The notes under the pieces are model-generated. The model saw only the letters and a list, made by a program, of their open reading frames with translations. It ran no database searches and was not told the origin of the DNA. From a virus (Duplodnaviria; Heunggongvirae; Uroviricota; Caudoviricetes), in IMG/VR virus record IMGVR_UViG_2734482597_000010: a DNA stretch of 64,000 nt; one strand, 5' to 3'. Each line of letters begins with the position of its first letter. Position 1 is the first letter of the stretch. The position numbers and the translations under genes were made by a program. Below are positions 9,796 to 62,036 of the stretch, one piece after another.

Positions 9796-10542
9796 ATGAA
9801 AAATATTGCGACAGGCGACGTTCTTGAACGTATCCGCAGACTGGCCCCGTCACATGTAACCGCGCCATTCAAGACGGTAGCGGAGTGGCGCGAGTGGCAA
9901 CTTTCCGAAGGCCAGAAACGTTGTGAGGAGATCAACCGTCAGAATCGTCAGTTGCGGGTGGAAAAAATTCTGAATCGCTCTGGCATCCAGCCATTGCACC
10001 GCAAATGCTCGTTTTCGAATTACCAGGTGCAGAACGAAGCGCAGCGATACGCGTTGAGTCAGGCGAAATCCATCGCTGATGAACTGATGANNNNNNNNNN
10101 NNNNNNNNNNNNNNNNNNNNNNNNNNNNNNNNNNNNNNNNNNNNNNNNNNNNNNNNNNNNNNNNNNNNNNNNNNNNNNNNNNNNNNNNNNNNNNNNNNNN
10201 NNNNNNNNNNNNNNNNNNNNNNNNNNNNNNNNNNNNNNNNNNNNNNNNNNNNNNNNNNNNNNNNNNNNNNNNNNNNNNNNNNNNNNNNNNNNNNNNNNNN
10301 NNNNNNNNNNNNNNNNNNNNNNNNNNNNNNNNNNNNNNNNGGTGGTGCTGCACCAGATTGTTGATCGCCGGACAGCGTCGATGCGCAGCGTGGGGATGCT
10401 GACAAACCTGAACTATGAGGCCATGAAAACATTGCTCGGCGAGCGGATTATGGATCGCATGACCATGAACGGCGGGCGATGGGTGAATTTTAACTGGGAG
10501 AGCTGGCGTCCGAATGTCGTCCAGCCAGGAATTGAGAAGTAA
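9796..10542 (+). CDS. ydaV: DnaC-like helicase loader YdaV (interrupted by N run)
   Basis: 248-aa ORF; internal 250-nt N run at 10091-10340 preserves frame. Confidence 0.7.
10091..10340. other. run of 250 N (gap or masked sequence) inside ydaV
   Basis: literal n characters in the sequence. Confidence 1.
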
Positions 10543-10564: not shown

Positions 10565-11326
10565 ATGGAGACTGTTTTTGACGCACTGAAAGCAATGGGA
10601 AAAGCCACATCCATAGAACTTGCTGCGCGACTTGATATCAGTCGTGAAGAAGTGCTGAACGAACTATGGGAACTGAAAAAAGCTGGTTTCGTTGATAAAA
10701 GCGCGTACACCTGGCGTGTGGCTGATAACAACGTTCAGCAGGAACAGCCAATGCAGGCAGAACTGCCGGAAGAAACCACCACGGCAACTGTAGTGAAAAT
10801 CTCAGAGTGCGATTTAACCGCGACGATTGAACAACGCGGACCACAAACGGCGGATGAACTGGCTACGCTGTTCGGTACAACATCCCGCAAAGTTGCTTCA
10901 ACGCTGGCAATGGCAATCAGCAAAGGACGCCTGATTCGCGTAAACCAGAACAGTAAATTTCGTTACTGCATGCCGGGCGATAATTTACCAGCAGAGCCGA
11001 AAGCTGCATCGGTAGCGGAAACTGATGGTAAAGCCTTTCCTCAGCCAGCCGGTGTTGCGTTACCAGTACAGGAAGCGGCAACACAGGAAGATATTAAAAC
11101 AGAAACTGTGGCGGACATTGTGCAGTCGCTGCCATCGTTTACTGAAACGCAAGCGGATGACCTAGTTTTACCATCGCTGCATATGGCAAACCGCGAACTG
11201 CGTCGGGCGAAAAATCATGTCCAGAAGTGGGAGCGAGTCTGCGCCGCGCTGCGGGAGCTGAACAAGCACCGGGATATTGTCCGACAGATTGTCGATTCCT
11301 CCAGTCGTATTGTGTCGGAAAAGTGA
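10565..11326 (+). CDS. YdaW-like protein (DUF977-like), N-terminal winged-helix
   Basis: ATG at 10565 ([13 protein letters not shown]) with upstream GGGAGG; 253 aa within the 270-aa ORF. Confidence 0.5.
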
Positions 11327-11341
11327 TTGCCGGAGGCGCTT

Positions 11342-11758
11342 ATGGCAAAAGTTTTTACACAGGAAGAGCGTGAAAAAATTAAGGAGCAGGTTGTTGAGTT
11401 GGTACGCCAGAGTGGGCGCGAGACGTTAAGGCAACTGGAGGCCAAGACAGGTGCGACAAGATATCTGATGAGCATTCTTGCCAGAGAGTTGGTTGCCAGT
11501 GGCGATGTATACAACTCTGGCTATGGGTTATTCCCGTCTGAACAGGCTCGTAAGGATTGGAAAAACGCCCGCAAAAAACTATCCAGGGCAAAGGTGAAAA
11601 AAACGGTTGTGGTTGATCCTGACCTTATCTGGTCATTACCAGACGGAGAAATACGCCGCTATGACAGGCGTCAGAACATAATCTGTCGCGAGTGCCGGAA
11701 GAGTGAAGTTATGAAACGTGTACTGGCATTTTATCAAGGAAATCTTCGGTATTTATAG
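11342..11758 (+). CDS. hypothetical protein with N-terminal HTH-like segment and CxxC pair
   Basis: ATG at 11342 (MAKVFTQEERE) preceded by GGAGG; 138 aa within the 143-aa ORF. Confidence 0.4.
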   Translation: MAKVFTQEEREKIKEQVVELVRQSGRETLRQLEAKTGATRYLMSILARELVASGDVYNSGYGLFPSEQARKDWKNARKKLSRAKVKKTVVVDPDLIWSLPDGEIRRYDRRQNIICRECRKSEVMKRVLAFYQGNLRYL

Positions 11759-11833
11759 ACGTTACTAGATCAAAGAGCATTAGTTCATATGTAAATTGAC
11801 ATTTTTCTGGCACAGGGGAGAGCTAGCGTGGTT

Positions 11834-11857
11834 GTCCGCTTTGTGCCAATAGCGGAC
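11834..11857. promoter_or_regulatory. 7-bp inverted repeat GTCCGCT-N10-AGCGGAC upstream of the AT-rich cassette
   Basis: perfect inverted repeat seen in sequence, followed by TGgTATGTT extended -10-like element and SD AAGGAGG. Confidence 0.35.
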
Positions 11858-11896
11858 ATTGCTGGCTCATGGTATGTTAGTTTAAGGAGGCAGGTT

Positions 11897-12919
11897 ATGC
11901 CCTGTATTTCGCTGTGGTATAATAGTTGCGCAATTGATACAAGGGAGCGTTACATCGTGAAAATTGTTTTCGAGGTTAATGGAAAGAAAGTTCCACTAAA
12001 ATCTTTAAAATACATAAGCAAAAAAGATCAACTCGAAGTAATGAAAAACTGGTTCTTTGAAAACTTTGAAGATCCGGCAAATGCTTGTCCGTATGAAAGT
12101 AGAGAAGGTGGCTATGCTTACATATATGGCGGGCCGTATGATGCGAGCGAAGAACTACAATCCATCTTCGGTCAATATGTTAAATCTGAGTATATTGAGG
12201 AATTAGTAGATGAATTACAAACACAATGTTTTGACTGGTCTGGAAACTCAAATAATATAGATGATTGGTACGATGATGATATCTACGACGCTGTAACGTC
12301 TTCCGGTAATCCGTATTTAAAATTCATTGATAATATCGATAAAATAAAAAAACTTGCAAAAGATAAAACTGAACAACAGCAAAAAAACCACTTGCTTAGT
12401 TTGCTCTACACGAATGTTATTACAGCTTTGGAAACGCTTTATGTTGAGCTATTCATTAATTCTATAGAGAAAGATGATGTCTACATAGCCAATTGTATAG
12501 AAAAAGGTAAGACTGAATTTAAAGTAAGCAAAGATATTGCTGCGTTGCCTTTCAAGGGTGAACCCATCGAGAAAATTAGGGGAGAGCTAATCAGGTCAAT
12601 CAAGGAACACTTGATCAGTGCAAGCTGGCATAGCACTAAAAAGGTAATCGACCGCTATGAAGCTACATTCGATATAAAAGTACAAAAAGACTGTCCGATA
12701 GAAGCTATTGAATTGGCAACCCTCAATCGAAATCACTTAGTGCATCGTGGTGGAAAGGATAAAGAAGGGAACCTCGTAGTGATTACAGACCAGGATCTTG
12801 AAACGCTGATTGAAAATGCATCGAACCTGGCAATTATGCTCTACAACAGTTTAAATGTAGCAACGAATAAAACCACCATTTTGCAACCAGATGACAAACC
12901 GTTCATTCATGAATTTTAA
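11897..12919 (+). CDS. hypothetical protein, 340 aa, C-terminal R-x4-H (HEPN-like) motif; candidate defence protein
   Basis: ATG at 11897 six nt after AAGGAGG (within the 363-aa ORF); AT-rich coding; RNHLVH motif near C-terminus. Confidence 0.55.
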   Translation: MPCISLWYNSCAIDTRERYIVKIVFEVNGKKVPLKSLKYISKKDQLEVMKNWFFENFEDPANACPYESREGGYAYIYGGPYDASEELQSIFGQYVKSEYIEELVDELQTQCFDWSGNSNNIDDWYDDDIYDAVTSSGNPYLKFIDNIDKIKKLAKDKTEQQQKNHLLSLLYTNVITALETLYVELFINSIEKDDVYIANCIEKGKTEFKVSKDIAALPFKGEPIEKIRGELIRSIKEHLISASWHSTKKVIDRYEATFDIKVQKDCPIEAIELATLNRNHLVHRGGKDKEGNLVVITDQDLETLIENASNLAIMLYNSLNVATNKTTILQPDDKPFIHEF

Positions 12920-12934
12920 TAGCGCAGGTCATAC

Positions 12935-13936
12935 ATGGATATTCGCACACGAAAGACAAAATTTTTAGAGTCGTTAGATTCAACTGAAGTGATACGCAAA
13001 GCAGTAAGTCTCGCTATAGATTGCATTATTGATAATCATAATAGTAATGAAGATACCCCCTTAGTTATTACCAGCTATGATGATCTCTGTAGAATCCAGG
13101 TGCTAAATTATGTACAGGAGTTTTGCGAAGCTGCATTCCCTGATATGGATGAATATTACTTTAGTCCTAACATACTTCGCATCAACGGCAAGACTAGTGA
13201 AGAAGCTTGTATTAACTTAATTAAACTCTTAAGAAGTACAAAAGGCATGCTATTCTGGTCCGATGCCCCATCGTGGTTCGCTAGCCTCCCCGACGGATTA
13301 TTCCATGTTGTTAACATTGATCAAAAAATCGTTACTCGCGGCCTTAATAAGAAAAACTCTAAGCCGACAATAATCAATAAAGATTACAGTGTAGATACAC
13401 TACTATCAGAGCTATTTTTGAATGGCGCACACATGGAGCAACCCAACGTACACAACGTTTCTGAGGGAAACATGAAGTTCTATGATGAATGCCATGCTGG
13501 ATTAATCAGACCAATACCCGCTCCAATAGGCGCGTCATACGATGAAGAGATCACAATTAATTCTCCAGATTGGCAAAAGCTCGCGTGTGTAGCTTTACGC
13601 CGCTATCAGTCGAAGGAATGTCATGACGGAATGCAATGGGATACAACCGATCATGGTTGGACTGATGTAATCGCGTATCCATTCGTCGAAGAAATACAAT
13701 CAATGGATAATAGTGGTTATCGACAATGTTTAGTTGGGCTGGTCACAATAAACAATTCAAATGCAAATTCTCCGTACCTATCTACCGTTTGGATACATCC
13801 ATTTTATCGCAGGAGAGGGTTATTAAGTAAGTTATGGCCAAAATTACAAGAGTTATATGGAAGTAACTTCGAAATTGAGCGACCTAATGAAAATATGAAA
13901 GCATTTCTGAAAAGTGCGAAACACGCAGATTACTAA
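12935..13936 (+). CDS. hypothetical protein, 333 aa, C-terminal GNAT-like segment; candidate partner of upstream gene
   Basis: 333-aa ORF 15 nt downstream of previous stop; AT-rich; C-terminal WIHPFYRRRGLLSKLW. Confidence 0.55.
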   Translation: MDIRTRKTKFLESLDSTEVIRKAVSLAIDCIIDNHNSNEDTPLVITSYDDLCRIQVLNYVQEFCEAAFPDMDEYYFSPNILRINGKTSEEACINLIKLLRSTKGMLFWSDAPSWFASLPDGLFHVVNIDQKIVTRGLNKKNSKPTIINKDYSVDTLLSELFLNGAHMEQPNVHNVSEGNMKFYDECHAGLIRPIPAPIGASYDEEITINSPDWQKLACVALRRYQSKECHDGMQWDTTDHGWTDVIAYPFVEEIQSMDNSGYRQCLVGLVTINNSNANSPYLSTVWIHPFYRRRGLLSKLWPKLQELYGSNFEIERPNENMKAFLKSAKHADY

Positions 13937-14113
13937 TTTATGAATCAGTCTGTGGAGTTAGGGTTGGTGTGAACAAGTAGGGTAAGAGCCTCAACGTGAT
14001 GCTATGCCGACCTGCTCCCTGAGAATTCACACAGAAGGCTGCTAGCAATGTCTGCAGATCGCTCAAAGCGGACTAAAATGTTGGCTTGTTTCTGACTTAG
14101 AGCATTTAAGGAA

Positions 14114-14338
14114 GTGCTGGTGGTGACTGGTTGTTGTGTTCCATTTCTACAGAATAAAATCACAGAAACTATACCCAATAGTTGTATTGAATCACTGACG
14201 AGACAGCCTCATATTTATCAGGACTGGTGTGCGTCTAATACAGGGGGTTGTCGTGCTGGTTCTCAAATGTGCGCTGGCTATTGCGGCTGTAATGGCAATT
14301 TATTGTCTTGCTGTTGTTCTTATGGAGCGGCTTTCTGA
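14114..14338 (+). CDS. possible Cys-rich small protein (74 aa, 11 Cys), GTG start
   Basis: ORF from track only; no convincing SD; could be spurious. Confidence 0.2.
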   Translation: MLVVTGCCVPFLQNKITETIPNSCIESLTRQPHIYQDWCASNTGGCRAGSQMCAGYCGCNGNLLSCCCSYGAAF

Positions 14339-14556
14339 TTGATTACATACTGGCTAGAAAAAAGGTGTTACCTTGGTTTATCTTTGTCCGGCAAGGTGCG
14401 CTCATTAATCTTAAGTAAATTTATTGCTCAAGTATTCAGATTACTTCTTATGGTTGAAGTCTCCTGTCAATGTAGAACCAATATATTTACAAAAATGAGA
14501 CCCGTCGGGGATAGCCCTGCCGGGTCTGACTGTTAAAGCATTTTTAATATGATCAT

Positions 14557-14895
14557 CTATTTTTTGGTGCTATAGACTTTTTCGCCCGAAAAGTCTGGAG
14601 CGACCCAAAAGTTAATATTAAACTGAGCATCATCGCTTAGTTCAACACGGTGCCAGTATTGTGGTGGGCTTGTTGCAAAAGCGCCAGCATTAATGACTAC
14701 TTTTATCTCCGGTTCAGTAGCATTCTCATCAGTAAAACCATAATATGTTACAGTGCCTTCCATTACGCACAACTGCCCAAAAACACCTGCTGCTGTATTA
14801 TGATGTGTTAATAACGCTGAAGGTACGTTCTCTTTTGTGAAGAACGGAGTTGAGCGTTTGATTACCCAATCTTTAGGAATTCTCTTGTGTGTCAT
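14557..14895 (-). CDS. YeaR-like DUF1971 protein
   Basis: 112 aa from MTHKRIPKDW within the 120-aa ORF; GGAGGAGG SD upstream on minus strand; resemblance to recalled E. coli YeaR (STPFF..., FNI.F.V.P). Confidence 0.6.
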   Translation of the reverse strand: MTHKRIPKDWVIKRSTPFFTKENVPSALLTHHNTAAGVFGQLCVMEGTVTYYGFTDENATEPEIKVVINAGAFATSPPQYWHRVELSDDAQFNINFWVAPDFSGEKVYSTKK

Positions 14896-15708
14896 AACCA
14901 CCTCCTCCAAAACATGCATTAAAAATGCATCTTTTGGAGGGTTATGTCAAGCTGTTATGAAACACATAATTGATATGTTGATTAGAGGAGAAGATAGAAT
15001 AAATATGGTTGTTTTTCGTATAACTATTTGTTTTACTTTTAGTTTATGCATTCTGTGTGTTAGGAATAAGTTATTAAAGTTTAATCAAAAAATCTCGATG
15101 TAGTCCACATAGATTACTGTTACTGAACCTTATTGTGTGTATTAGTTGTGTTCTGAAATTTCAGCTTAATTATTTATGATGTATTTTTTAACGATAAATA
15201 TTTTCCCAGGATACCTTTACTGTGTATATAAATAAATTATATACGCATAAATAATGTAAAGGCGTCCTTTTAGATATATCTTATCAAATGTTAATGACTT
15301 GAGTGGGAAATATGATTCCAGCAACTTATCATGTGGCTACTTTATAAAAATAATGCCCATATAAAACAACAAGCGAAAAGGATTACGGATAAAAAAGGAG
15401 CGAGATGTGCGAACTTGTTATTTTCCATGTTTAACCACCTTAAATAATTGATGATGACGGGATGATTGCATCTGTAATGCTTTTATTGAAATGTTATGAT
15501 AAAAAAGAACTTTTGCATAACATTAAAATGTAATTTATCTAATCGTTTTTAATAATAAGTGTCGTATTTCTATCCTTGTACCAGCTATTTGATATGTAGT
15601 GTTTGTTCATGCTATGTGGGGCTTTACACCATAGCCAGTTTATTTATACTTTATTCGTCAGCCTGAACAACTGGCATCTGCTGCGCTGCGCCATCGAGAG
15701 ATTGAGAA

Positions 15709-16308
15709 ATGGCGCATATACAACTGGTCAAACAAACCTCTTCTGGTTTACTTCTCCCGGCGACGCCGGAGAGTTGCGATTTTCTGCATCAAATCAAAAT
15801 AGGTGAGTGGATACACGCAGACTTTAAGCGTGTGCGTAACTACGCATTCCACAAGCGTTTTTTCAAACTCCTGCAACTGGGATTCGATTACTGGACTCCG
15901 GTCGGTGGGGCGATCACGCCTCGCGAACGAGAACTGCTGTCTGGTTTCGTTGATTACCTGTGCGAATCAGTTGGTCGGGAACACACGCCAGCCCTGAGTG
16001 ATGCCGCAGAGCAATACCTTAACACCGTTGCGACTCGTAGAACCCGGGATACGGCGTTGCTAAAGTCGTTTGAGGCTTTCCGCGAGTGGGTAACCATTCA
16101 GGCCGGATTTTACACCGAGCATATTTATCCGGACGGTAGCCGTGGGCGTCGGGCAAAATCCATCGCTTTTGCGAATATGGACGAAGTCGAGTTTCAGCAG
16201 GTTTATAAATCTGTACTGAATGTGCTGTGGAACTGGATTCTGTTCCGTAAATTCTCCTCTCAGGAGGAAGTTGAAAATGTGGCCGCACAACTACTGGAGT
16301 TTGCGTAA
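15709..16308 (+). CDS. nin-region phage protein (DUF1367-like)
   Basis: 199-aa ORF; family assignment from memory of similar prophage proteins. Confidence 0.5.
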   Translation: MAHIQLVKQTSSGLLLPATPESCDFLHQIKIGEWIHADFKRVRNYAFHKRFFKLLQLGFDYWTPVGGAITPRERELLSGFVDYLCESVGREHTPALSDAAEQYLNTVATRRTRDTALLKSFEAFREWVTIQAGFYTEHIYPDGSRGRRAKSIAFANMDEVEFQQVYKSVLNVLWNWILFRKFSSQEEVENVAAQLLEFA

Positions 16309-18181: not shown

Positions 18182-18610
18182 ATGGGTTTTCGTAGCGCAT
18201 CAATTCTTACGTTGATTATTAGTGGGATTATTATCGGGTGCACTGATGCTGTATCGACAAATTATCATGACCGTACATCATATTACTCCGATAAAGCAAT
18301 AGAGACACAGTATGTGAGTTCATCTGAACGTACTTCTGATGTTAGTGAGGATATCCGTCTGTATGCCCATCAAATCAAGAGCGCCATCGAAAAACAGTTC
18401 GGGGATGCGAGTAAGTATTCAGGAAAAGAGTGTACACTGAGAATGCATATGGCCCCGAATGGCCTTCTACTGGAGGTTAAAAGAGAAAGTGGAGACCTCG
18501 ATTTATGTCGTGAAGCGATGAATGCGATAAAGAATGCTGATATACCTGCCCCCCCTTCGCCGGAAGTATATAAAGTATTTCAAAATGGGGTGCTGGATTT
18601 TAAACCCTGA
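18182..18610 (+). CDS. lipoprotein with TolA C-terminal (domain III)-like domain
   Basis: 142-aa ORF; signal peptide with lipobox IIGC; C-terminal 90 aa align with recalled E. coli TolA domain III (QIKSAIE..., GK.CTLR...P.G.LL..K...GD..LC..A..A...A.IP.PPS..VY.VF.N..LDFKP). Confidence 0.7.
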   Translation: MGFRSASILTLIISGIIIGCTDAVSTNYHDRTSYYSDKAIETQYVSSSERTSDVSEDIRLYAHQIKSAIEKQFGDASKYSGKECTLRMHMAPNGLLLEVKRESGDLDLCREAMNAIKNADIPAPPSPEVYKVFQNGVLDFKP

Positions 18611-18760
18611 TATTTATTGTTTTGTAATAAACGGTTTCGGCTTAGGTTTGTTCTGACACAGCTACGGCACTGAGCTAAATTTAGCGGATAGTCAGCTCTG
18701 AGCCAGTGGCGGACGTAACAACTACTATTGCTGAGATTTTAATGGATTGAGGAGCAAGAA

Positions 18761-19156
18761 GTGGGATTAAAGAAAATCGTTATGTTGACTTTTTGGGTCG
18801 GTTTTGTTGCGGGATGCACACCTTTACACCCTTCAGATTGCCACAAAACTACTGCTACAGGTAGTTGCAGTTCAGGACGCTGGGATGATCAGGATGAATG
18901 GGGGGCGCAAGCGCGGGGAATCAGAGCTGCAATTAATGCCAAACTTGATGAGCCGCATAACTGGAAAGGGAAAAAATGCAGGTTGCATATGGAATTCTCT
19001 CAGGATGGCACGGCGTTAAAAATATCTACCAGTAACGGTGATAAAGCCTATTGCGAAGCGATAAAGTCCGCAGCTCATAAAGCCAAATTTCCGGCCTTCA
19101 ACAATCCGGAAGTCTACAGAGATTTTCAGAAATCTGGCTTTGACATGCGAGGTTAG
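18761..19156 (+). CDS. second lipoprotein, diverged TolA-III-like paralogue
   Basis: 131-aa ORF; lipobox VAGC; same C-terminal pattern (GKKCRLHMEF...DG..L.IS...GD.AYCEA...A..A.FP....PEVY). Confidence 0.6.
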   Translation: MGLKKIVMLTFWVGFVAGCTPLHPSDCHKTTATGSCSSGRWDDQDEWGAQARGIRAAINAKLDEPHNWKGKKCRLHMEFSQDGTALKISTSNGDKAYCEAIKSAAHKAKFPAFNNPEVYRDFQKSGFDMRG

Positions 19157-61227: not shown

Positions 61228-62036
61228 ATGCGTAAAGTTTGTGCAGCCATTTTGTCCGCAGCCATTTGCCTGGCCGTATCCGGTGCGCCTGCATGGGCGT
61301 CTGAACATCAGTCCACGCTGAGCGCGGGGTATCTTCATGCCCGGACCAACGTTCCCGGCAGTGATGATCTGAACGGGATTAACGTGAAATACCGTTATGA
61401 GTTTACGGATACGCTGGGGCTGGTGACGTCATTCAGCTATGCAGGAGACAAGAATCGCCAGCTGACCCGTTACAGCGATACCCGCTGGCATGAAGATTCC
61501 GTGCGTAACCGCTGGTTCAGCGTGATGGCGGGGCCGTCTGTGCGCGTGAATGAATGGTTCAGCGCGTATGCGATGGCGGGTGTGGCTTACAGCCGTGTGT
61601 CGACTTTCTCCGGGGATTATCTCCGCGTAACTGACAACAAGGGGAAAACGCACGACGTGCTGACCGGAAGTGATGACGGTCGCCACAGCAACACGTCTCT
61701 GGCGTGGGGAGCTGGCGTGCAGTTTAACCCGACCGAATCCGTGGCCATTGATATTGCTTATGAAGGCTCCGNNNNNNNNNNNNNNNNNNNNNNNNNNNNN
61801 NNNNNNNNNNNNNNNNNNNNNNNNNNNNNNNNNNNNNNNNNNNNNNNNNNNNNNNNNNNNNNNNNNNNNNNNNNNNNNNNNNNNNNNNNNNNNNNNNNNN
61901 NNNNNNNNNNNNNNNNNNNNNNNNNNNNNNNNNNNNNNNNNNNNNNNNNNNNNNNNNNNNNNNNNNNNNNNNNNNNNNNNNNNNNNNNNNNNNNNNNNNN
62001 NNNNNNNNNNNNNNNNNNNNNTCGGTTATAAATTCT
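61228..62036 (+). CDS. lom: outer membrane protein Lom (interrupted by N run)
   Basis: signal peptide MRKVCAAILSAAICLAVSGAPAWA; matches recalled lambda Lom through ...IAYEGS, then N run, then ...GYKF stop. Confidence 0.8.
61772..62021. other. run of 250 N inside lom 3' end
   Basis: literal n characters; longer than the ~60 nt expected to be missing. Confidence 1.

Follow-up and report, generated by a model that had tools for sequence, protein, structure and literature searches.

The 64,000-nucleotide (nt) stretch analysed here (IMG/VR record IMGVR_UViG_2734482597_000010, Caudoviricetes; hereafter the window, in whose coordinates all positions are given unless another locus is named) carries, between phage replication genes and nin-like genes, a cassette of two same-strand open reading frames, ORF1 (11897/11957-12919) and ORF2 (12935-13936), with a gap of 15 nt from the ORF1 stop to the ORF2 ATG. 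The cassette is the anti-phage system DS-33, already published in 2026. Its genes and the motifs within them are as follows.

11897-11956, plus strand: in-frame extension of 20 codons 5' of the likely ORF1 start, probably untranslated.
11957-12919, plus strand: ORF1 (DS-33A, WP_014639476.1, 320 amino acids (aa)), with an N-terminal HEPN/RES-NTD1 domain and a C-terminal RiboL-PSP-type HEPN domain.
12032-12232, plus strand: HEPN_RES_NTD1-like domain of ORF1, aa 46-112 of the 340-aa frame, with the invariant core W-F..FEDP..P-Y-E..E-G-G..G-G-P.
12728-12745, plus strand: Rx4H catalytic motif R-N-H-L-V-H of ORF1, R278 to H283 in the 340-aa frame and R258 to H263 in the 320-aa frame.
12935-13936, plus strand: ORF2 (DS-33B, WP_000354966.1, 333 aa), with an N-terminal alpha/beta domain and a C-terminal GNAT fold.
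13799-13801, plus strand: codon for P289 of ORF2, in the GNAT beta4-alpha3 motif WIHPFYRRRG; proline in the window, leucine in the sole allele tested experimentally.

An earlier reading of the window, made from its letters alone (the original prediction), had described two co-directional genes 15 nt apart in an AT-rich block, and both points are borne out, the start of ORF1 aside. The GC content of the cassette (11863-14043, about 2.2 kb) is 38.6%, against 49.8% in the upstream replication genes, 49.1% in the downstream nin-like genes and 49.3% in the window as a whole, where just 1.6% of equal-sized segments are as low; at third codon positions it is 0.35-0.36 in ORF1 and ORF2 and 0.47-0.53 in the neighbouring genes. 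The base composition of the cassette is foreign. Runs of N mask parts of the window (1,429 N in all, from 10091, the last at 62021) and interrupt the ydaV/DnaC-like replication gene directly upstream of the cassette (ORF 9796-10542), so that the apparent GC content is lowered in the 9750-10500 rows of the profile. A scan of 11000-16000 against Rfam matched no RNA family.

The same reading took the cassette for an undescribed system, but it had been cloned and validated earlier. In the DefensePredictor study (DeWeirdt et al., Science 2026, PMC13092281) the operon WP_014639476.1 plus WP_000354965.1, provisionally called 'GNAT' and finally DS-33, is scored as defensive (TRUE); it stems from an E. 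coli assembly (GCF_003334765.1, NZ_QOWT01000046.1:6922-8901) of a strain that the authors had in their own collection. The DS-33A sequence in Table S8 of that study is exactly that of window ORF1 read from GTG 11957, and the Prokaryotic Genome Annotation Pipeline (PGAP) annotates WP_014639476.1 on DNA 100% identical to the window. Window ORF2 and the cloned DS-33B (WP_000354965.1) are identical in 332 of 333 residues, the sole difference being P289L, and the gene order and the 15-nt spacer are the same. The two cassettes thus differ in their allele of ORF2, the rare P289L in the clone and the common P289 in the window, and in their setting, since the window cassette sits in its native Rac-type prophage slot, unlike the cloned DS-33.

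Protection by DS-33 in MG1655 is given in Table S7 of the same study as log10 values for two replicates (replicate 1/replicate 2). The wild type reaches 3.8/2.6 against T7, 3.3/2.4 against T3, 4/2.0 against Bas67, 5/5.9 against Bas26 and 0.8/0.1 against T5. Deletion of the HEPN gene leaves 0.1/-0.3, -0.5/0, 0/-0.2, 0.5/0.3 and 0.5/0.1 against the same phages in the same order (all at most 0.54), and the R258A substitution leaves 0.8/0.5, -0.3/0.3, 0.5/0, 0.7/0.4 and 0.4/0.3 (all at most 0.78). Deletion of the GNAT gene gives 4.8/4.3, 3.3/3.3, 4/3.3, 5/4.9 and 1.7/0.5. R258, numbered for the published 320-aa protein, corresponds to R278 of the 340-aa ORF and is the arginine of the RNHLVH motif that the original prediction had singled out for mutation, and its replacement abolishes defence. 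The phage resistance named in that prediction is likewise on record, as 2.4-5.9 log against T7, T3 and Bas26 and 2-4 log against Bas67. These published assays show protection, its dependence on ORF1 and on the Rx4H arginine, and the dispensability of ORF2 in its P289L allele. We therefore hold it very probable that the cassette is a real defence system, DS-33, in which ORF1 is a self-contained effector and ORF2 a co-transcribed GNAT-fold protein that is not needed for protection. An ordinary phage function in replication, lysis or structure, or a pair of non-functional remnants with no role in defence, is exceedingly improbable: such a reading has only the position of the genes in the early region of a prophage in its favour and is refuted by the ORF1-dependent protection in the plating assays, and the rarity of the cassette (about 4% of E. 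coli genomes), its foreign base composition, the other cargo found in its slot, substitution ratios well below 1 for both genes and PHROG families of unknown function all speak against it.

ORF1 is a HEPN protein, as had been proposed from its RNHLVH motif. Its fold is the all-alpha four-helix bundle of HEPN domains, and its best structural matches include HEPN toxins of HEPN-MNT pairs. In an alignment of 36 homologues R278, H283, R284 and E179 are all invariant, and the R278-x4-H283 motif is kept down to 25% identity as well as in all loci compared. ORF1 homologues are on record with PF18735 (HEPN_RiboL-PSP; many of them at 31-65% identity) and with PF18870 (HEPN_RES_NTD1; at 55-76% identity), and the published loss of defence in R258A agrees with this assignment. 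A search of PDB sequences with the profile of the ORF1 alignment found nothing. The start of the gene is probably GTG 11957 and not ATG 11897, and the product 320 and not 340 aa, since nearly all homologues start at the equivalent position, PGAP uses the same start, and the structural model shows disorder over residues 1-19 of the longer product (predicted local distance difference test below 50); the start chosen in the original prediction would thus lie 60 nt too early. GTG 11957 has its own AAGGGAG 9 nt upstream.

From the membership of DS-33A in the AbiD/AbiF-related HEPN branch and from the precedent of HepS, described below, we infer its RNase activity, RNA target, trigger and abortive outcome and the sensor role of its N-terminal domain. 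DS-33A would be held inactive in uninfected cells. On the appearance of a component of T7-like and some other phages it would be activated through the N-terminal HEPN/RES-NTD1 domain, the likely sensing or regulatory part, or through a rearrangement of the oligomer; the C-terminal RiboL-PSP-type HEPN domain, which is related to the AbiD/AbiF HEPN domains, would then act as the executing nuclease and cut RNA, and phage production would be blocked, in all likelihood with loss of the infected cell. ORF2, co-transcribed with ORF1, evolves as an independent module.

HepS, from the Salmonella prophage Gifsy-1, is a solo HEPN protein that senses tail-tip proteins and cuts tRNA (Nature 2026, PMC13043305). 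It resembles DS-33A as a lone HEPN protein that both senses and executes, with no obligate inhibitory partner and with a need for its Rx4-6H motif, and it is encoded among accessory genes just past the replication genes of a lambdoid prophage; however, no sequence homology between HepS and ORF1 was found, and it is an analogue rather than a relative. The HEPN sub-family of DS-33A is shared with component B of PD-T4-2 (Vassallo et al. 2022) and with the RiboL-PSP / AbiD-AbiF branch (Anantharaman et al. 2013, PMC3710099). A distant, HHblits-level profile match between DS-33A and PD-T4-2_B is on record in the DefensePredictor study (coverage 0.55, probability 96.1; PMC13092281), whereas the PADLOC profile hidden Markov models of PD-T4-2A/B matched neither ORF1 nor ORF2 at E up to 1, and PD-T4-2 differs in its N-terminal domain, its partner gene and its phage range (T4, as against T7, T3 and Bas26 for DS-33). 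HEPN-MNT pairs of types II and VII are alike in placing a HEPN nuclease gene beside the gene of a small-molecule transferase and in the structural closeness of their HEPN toxins to ORF1, but the partner in DS-33 has a GNAT fold and not that of a nucleotidyltransferase, the gene order is reversed and the partner is not needed for viability. PADLOC, NCBIfam and PHROGs hold no functional name for the cassette proteins, and the PHROG families concerned are of unknown function; of the tool-based checks proposed with the original prediction, structure comparison supports the HEPN and GNAT folds, while PADLOC has no match for either protein. Literature searches on RiboL-PSP, on the Rac hotspot and on HEPN plus GNAT pairs turned up nothing specific, and the accessions of the cassette were found only in supplementary tables.

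The C-terminal part of ORF2 (about aa 205-333, nt 13547-13933) has the alpha/beta fold of a GNAT, in keeping with the GNAT-like end proposed for it earlier, and the HPFYRRRG segment is present in the window and conserved. Compared with GNAT motif A (Q/R-x-x-G-x-G/A), H288, P289 and R292 of the segment are invariant and the glycines vary (RRRGLL, RRGGLL, RGERLL). Against PF00583 the protein scores 19.9 bits (cut-off 20.7), and a search of a viral structure library returned generic GNATs only. The N-terminal domain gave weak matches to AAA+/ORC/NLR-like proteins, with poor root-mean-square deviations and no Walker A motif, and is not assigned to them. P289 sits where beta4 meets alpha3, in the motif responsible for acetyl-CoA binding in the GNAT fold. 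It is invariant across 32 aligned ORF2 homologues and in all 68 loci of the ORF2 family; the P289 allele of the window (WP_000354966.1) occurs on at least 1000 contigs and the P289L allele (WP_000354965.1) on 31. With P289L at an invariant position the cloned DS-33B is possibly impaired, and it is for this allele that ORF2 was reported to be dispensable.

In a set of 154 loci drawn from genomes, metagenomes and viral contigs, the two genes stand side by side only within a shallow clade, defined by identities to the window of 84% or more for ORF1 and 78% or more for ORF2, and there the spacing is constant and the divergences of both genes rise together. Beside more divergent ORF1 homologues no relative of ORF2 was found, a profile search included, and ORF1 homologues at 74% identity or less are solitary. 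The distant ones, mostly solitary and found in defence-island settings, adjoin integrases, AbiH, a DpnII/MboI restriction enzyme or Mrr_cat; genes of about 300-346 aa lying 3' of divergent ORF1 homologues were considered as remote relatives of ORF2 and ruled out, being AbiH, the DpnII/MboI restriction enzyme, Mrr_cat, a Mu-like protein and others. ORF2 homologues, too, are mostly solitary and occur in mobile-element settings, in islands with integrases, insertion sequence (IS) elements, Fic, SymE and antirestriction/CbeA genes. Several of the 'solitary' ORF2 genes (85-86% identity) derive from the pair. In one group (L009, L159-161) an internal deletion of ORF1 has fused the region of the hairpin, promoter and ribosome-binding site (window 11833-11933) to the last ~77 nt before ORF2; in a second (L155-158) ORF1 is truncated at its 5' end, with its last 64 codons left; and in E. 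coli AHB12 IS1 has removed the 5' half of ORF1. The ratio of nonsynonymous to synonymous substitution rates (dN/dS) is 0.13-0.34 for ORF2, also in lineages that have lost ORF1, and 0.14-0.19 for ORF1, which indicates purifying selection on both; ORF1 is therefore not needed for the maintenance of ORF2. The reverse case is E. coli SF-173, a viable strain in which ORF1 is intact and ORF2 is split by IS1 at about residue 187, so that ORF2 is not an essential antitoxin. In E. coli MB56 (L164, 1730-5092) ISSen4 flanks ORF1 on both sides, with a copy in the promoter region and another separating it from ORF2, an arrangement that resembles a composite transposon around the HEPN gene.

The repeated deletion of ORF1 with ORF2 kept invites a toxin-antitoxin interpretation, but SF-173, the viable and protective GNAT deletion and the solitary ORF1 homologues argue against an essential antitoxin. 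A gentler form of this idea, a genuine two-component system in which ORF2 is a brake or antitoxin-like regulator that acetylates or binds the HEPN protein, as MNT AMPylates HEPN toxins, and in which the tested allele is a hypomorph, appears to us quite unlikely. The 15-nt spacing and the strict co-inheritance of the pair across its clade are what it would predict, as are the HEPN toxins of HEPN-MNT pairs among the structural neighbours of ORF1, the at least three separate losses of ORF1 with ORF2 intact just described, and P289L in the tested DS-33B. Against T7, moreover, protection by the GNAT deletion exceeds that of the wild type by 1.0 log in one replicate and 1.7 log in the other, which hints at a damping role of ORF2, though not robustly: the gain is small, inconsistent for Bas26 and possibly an effect of expression. 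Cells with ORF1 and no ORF2 are viable and well defended, SF-173 keeps its ORF1 beside a broken ORF2, and both families occur apart, all of which tells against a brake. The claim of a two-gene system in the original prediction accordingly does not hold: the GNAT deletion leaves defence intact, each family mostly occurs without the other and SF-173 is viable.

ORF2 is most likely an independent passenger. Its purifying selection with or without ORF1 is also what one would expect of a miniature defence island, in which two independent cargo genes share a promoter and ORF2 is a separate immune or counter-immune gene with a phage range or substrate of its own. The solitary occurrence of ORF2 in islands of mobile and antirestriction genes fits this, as does the retention of promoter and hairpin, fused to ORF2, in derivatives that have lost ORF1. 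So do the neighbours of two distant ORF2 homologues: one (L017, 969-2483) lies 14 nt from the gene of a ThsA-like SIR2 protein, and the other (the locus of P0164) beside an Mrr_cat protein in an island with TerB_N, BrxC-BrxD, a helicase and HEPN_Toprim_N. These associations suggest that GNAT proteins of the ORF2 type keep company with varied immune effectors. The construct with ORF2 alone (the HEPN deletion, in the P289L allele) nevertheless gave no protection against five phages, the DefensePredictor log-odds for ORF2 are low (1.08) and PADLOC has no match for it; we regard a miniature island as possible but on balance not likely.

Several points weigh against the preferred reading of DS-33 as a self-contained HEPN effector with a passenger. 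The dispensability of ORF2 was obtained with a rare allele at an invariant residue, from a plasmid in MG1655 and against no more than five phages. The constant gap of 15 nt, and the way in which both genes diverge together over about 78-100% identity, could reflect a functional link that the assay missed. As to ORF1 itself, the window protein scores 21.8 bits (E = 2.5e-4) against PF18870, below the gathering threshold of 27.4 bits, and a Pfam scan gave no direct match to PF18735. RNA cleavage by DS-33A is a prediction, what genetics shows being the loss of defence in R258A, and an abortive outcome is assumed by analogy with other HEPN systems; the literature reports no target, trigger or abortive phenotype for DS-33. 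The system is not individually discussed in the main text of PMC13092281, which mentions HEPN domains in four newly validated systems and nothing more specific, and Table S9 of the study gives no interface score for an A-B complex. Taken further, the allele suggests a more speculative and, we think, unlikely proposal, that DS-33B is a two-domain acetyltransferase module that gates neighbouring effectors (HEPN here, ThsA-like SIR2 or Mrr in distant relatives) and that its dispensability is due to P289L being a hypomorph. If so, the cassette with P289 would work as a regulated two-component system: infection would lift a brake, or else a self-immunity factor would serve the prophage in its own lytic cycle.

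The boundaries and the leader of the cassette are marked by the following features.

11834-11857, plus strand: left boundary hairpin of the cargo slot, GTCCGCT-N10-AGCGGAC, 8 bp when T11833/A11858 are counted.
11870-11890, plus strand: cassette-specific leader, with the extended -10-like TGGTATGTT at 11870-11878 and AAGGAGG at 11884-11890.
14050-14073, plus strand: right boundary hairpin, a degenerate copy of the left one (GTCTGC..GCGGAC) in inverted orientation.

The left hairpin, which the original prediction had listed as a perfect 7-bp inverted repeat, is common to backbones lacking the cassette and to cassette copies of other genera: homology of the Serratia and metagenome copies to the window begins at 11834, and E. 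coli backbones without the cassette match the window as far as about 11860-11883. The right hairpin is perfect in E. coli strain M3. In the window the GTCCGCT-N10-AGCGGAC motif occurs in three copies against 0.18 expected, a number reached in none of 100 shuffles; two inverted copies bracket the cargo slot, are conserved in backbones that lack the cassette and accompany it in its Serratia and Citrobacter settings. The third copy (18691-18714) lies between two TolA-like accessory genes. The motif may mark a recombination junction or act as an insulator or terminator. A 46-nt inverted repeat flanking the cassette was also considered; it is not significant alone, its score being matched by 6 of 100 shuffles, and only the short hairpin motif is over-represented. 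The leader, in which AAGGAGG stands 6 nt ahead of ATG 11897, is kept in the Serratia, Rahnella and Enterobacter copies of the cassette and also in derivatives that have lost ORF1, and is a candidate promoter region judged by its motifs. Both elements named in the original prediction are present, but a generic sigma-70 consensus scan called no full promoter there, and the counts of promoter and terminator sites do not exceed those in shuffles. A promoter-like consensus match (TTGAAA-16-AATTAT, 12810-12837) in the 3' end of ORF1, which falls in the 211 nt kept by the 5'-truncated derivatives L155-158, could be an independent promoter of ORF2.

E. coli FORC_081 has an identical cassette, in a Rac-type prophage located at ttcA with the gene order intR-xisR-ralR-recT-recE-racC-kilR, sieB, repressor/cro-like, ydaT, ydaU, DnaC-like, DUF1627, DUF977 and cassette, followed on the 3' side by a reverse DUF1971 gene and then DUF1367/DUF1364/DUF1133. 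The cargo slot is that of a Rac-type lambdoid prophage, between the DUF977 gene of the replication module and nin/Q-like genes; a second lambdoid background also has the cassette, followed by hokD, DUF968, RusA and Q. MG1655 lacks the region, its ydaW directly preceding rzpR/rzoR and trkG in Rac, as the original prediction had it for K-12. The full cassette is present in 205 of 5,426 complete E. coli genomes (about 4%), and each gene singly is detectable in 209. About 700 more E. coli genomes share just the first ~100 nt past the DUF977 gene, the slot being filled by other cargo, namely hypothetical genes on the reverse strand (269 or 314 aa), a stretch with no annotation, or PD-T7-1, an experimentally validated defence protein. 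In E. coli KBN10P04869 (L166, 6126-7475) the slot holds PD-T7-1 (PADLOC E = 7e-157) with the uncharacterised 314-aa reverse-strand gene, and in other strains it holds the uncharacterised 269-aa reverse-strand gene WP_000161640.1; the uncharacterised slot genes have no match in Pfam or PADLOC. That anti-phage cargo occupies a variable prophage slot here, as the original prediction supposed, is supported. A 3.3-kb contig (L007, JAIHTM010000277.1) from a metagenome-assembled genome binned as the actinobacterium Collinsella sp. encodes cassette proteins 100% identical to those of E. coli and is most likely a binning contaminant.

Downstream of the cassette the window has a reverse-strand DUF1971/TehB-family gene (14557-14919, minus strand) and a very AT-rich stretch within 14750-15700 (GC 0.29-0.34), with a single ORF of at least 50 aa (14837-15103, plus strand, 88 aa); the AT-rich stretch past the DUF1971/TehB-family gene may be further cargo or regulatory DNA. 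Between the Q-like and lysis genes, the two adjacent genes at 18182-18610 and 18761-19156 are TolA and TolA C-terminal domain proteins according to the annotation of an identical prophage, and are possible exclusion morons.

From raw sequence alone the original prediction correctly identified a genuine immune system together with the catalytic motif and hotspot that belong to it, which means that composition and motifs together can find defence cargo; as the system is already in the literature, the finding itself adds little. What the comparison does bring out is that the GNAT gene has been put to a functional test only as an allele in which an invariant residue is mutated, and that the HEPN and GNAT genes are separable modules of which the nuclease has recurrently been lost. 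The hairpin-bracketed slot past the DUF977 gene of Rac-type prophages, which also holds PD-T7-1, is a practical place to mine for further cargo.

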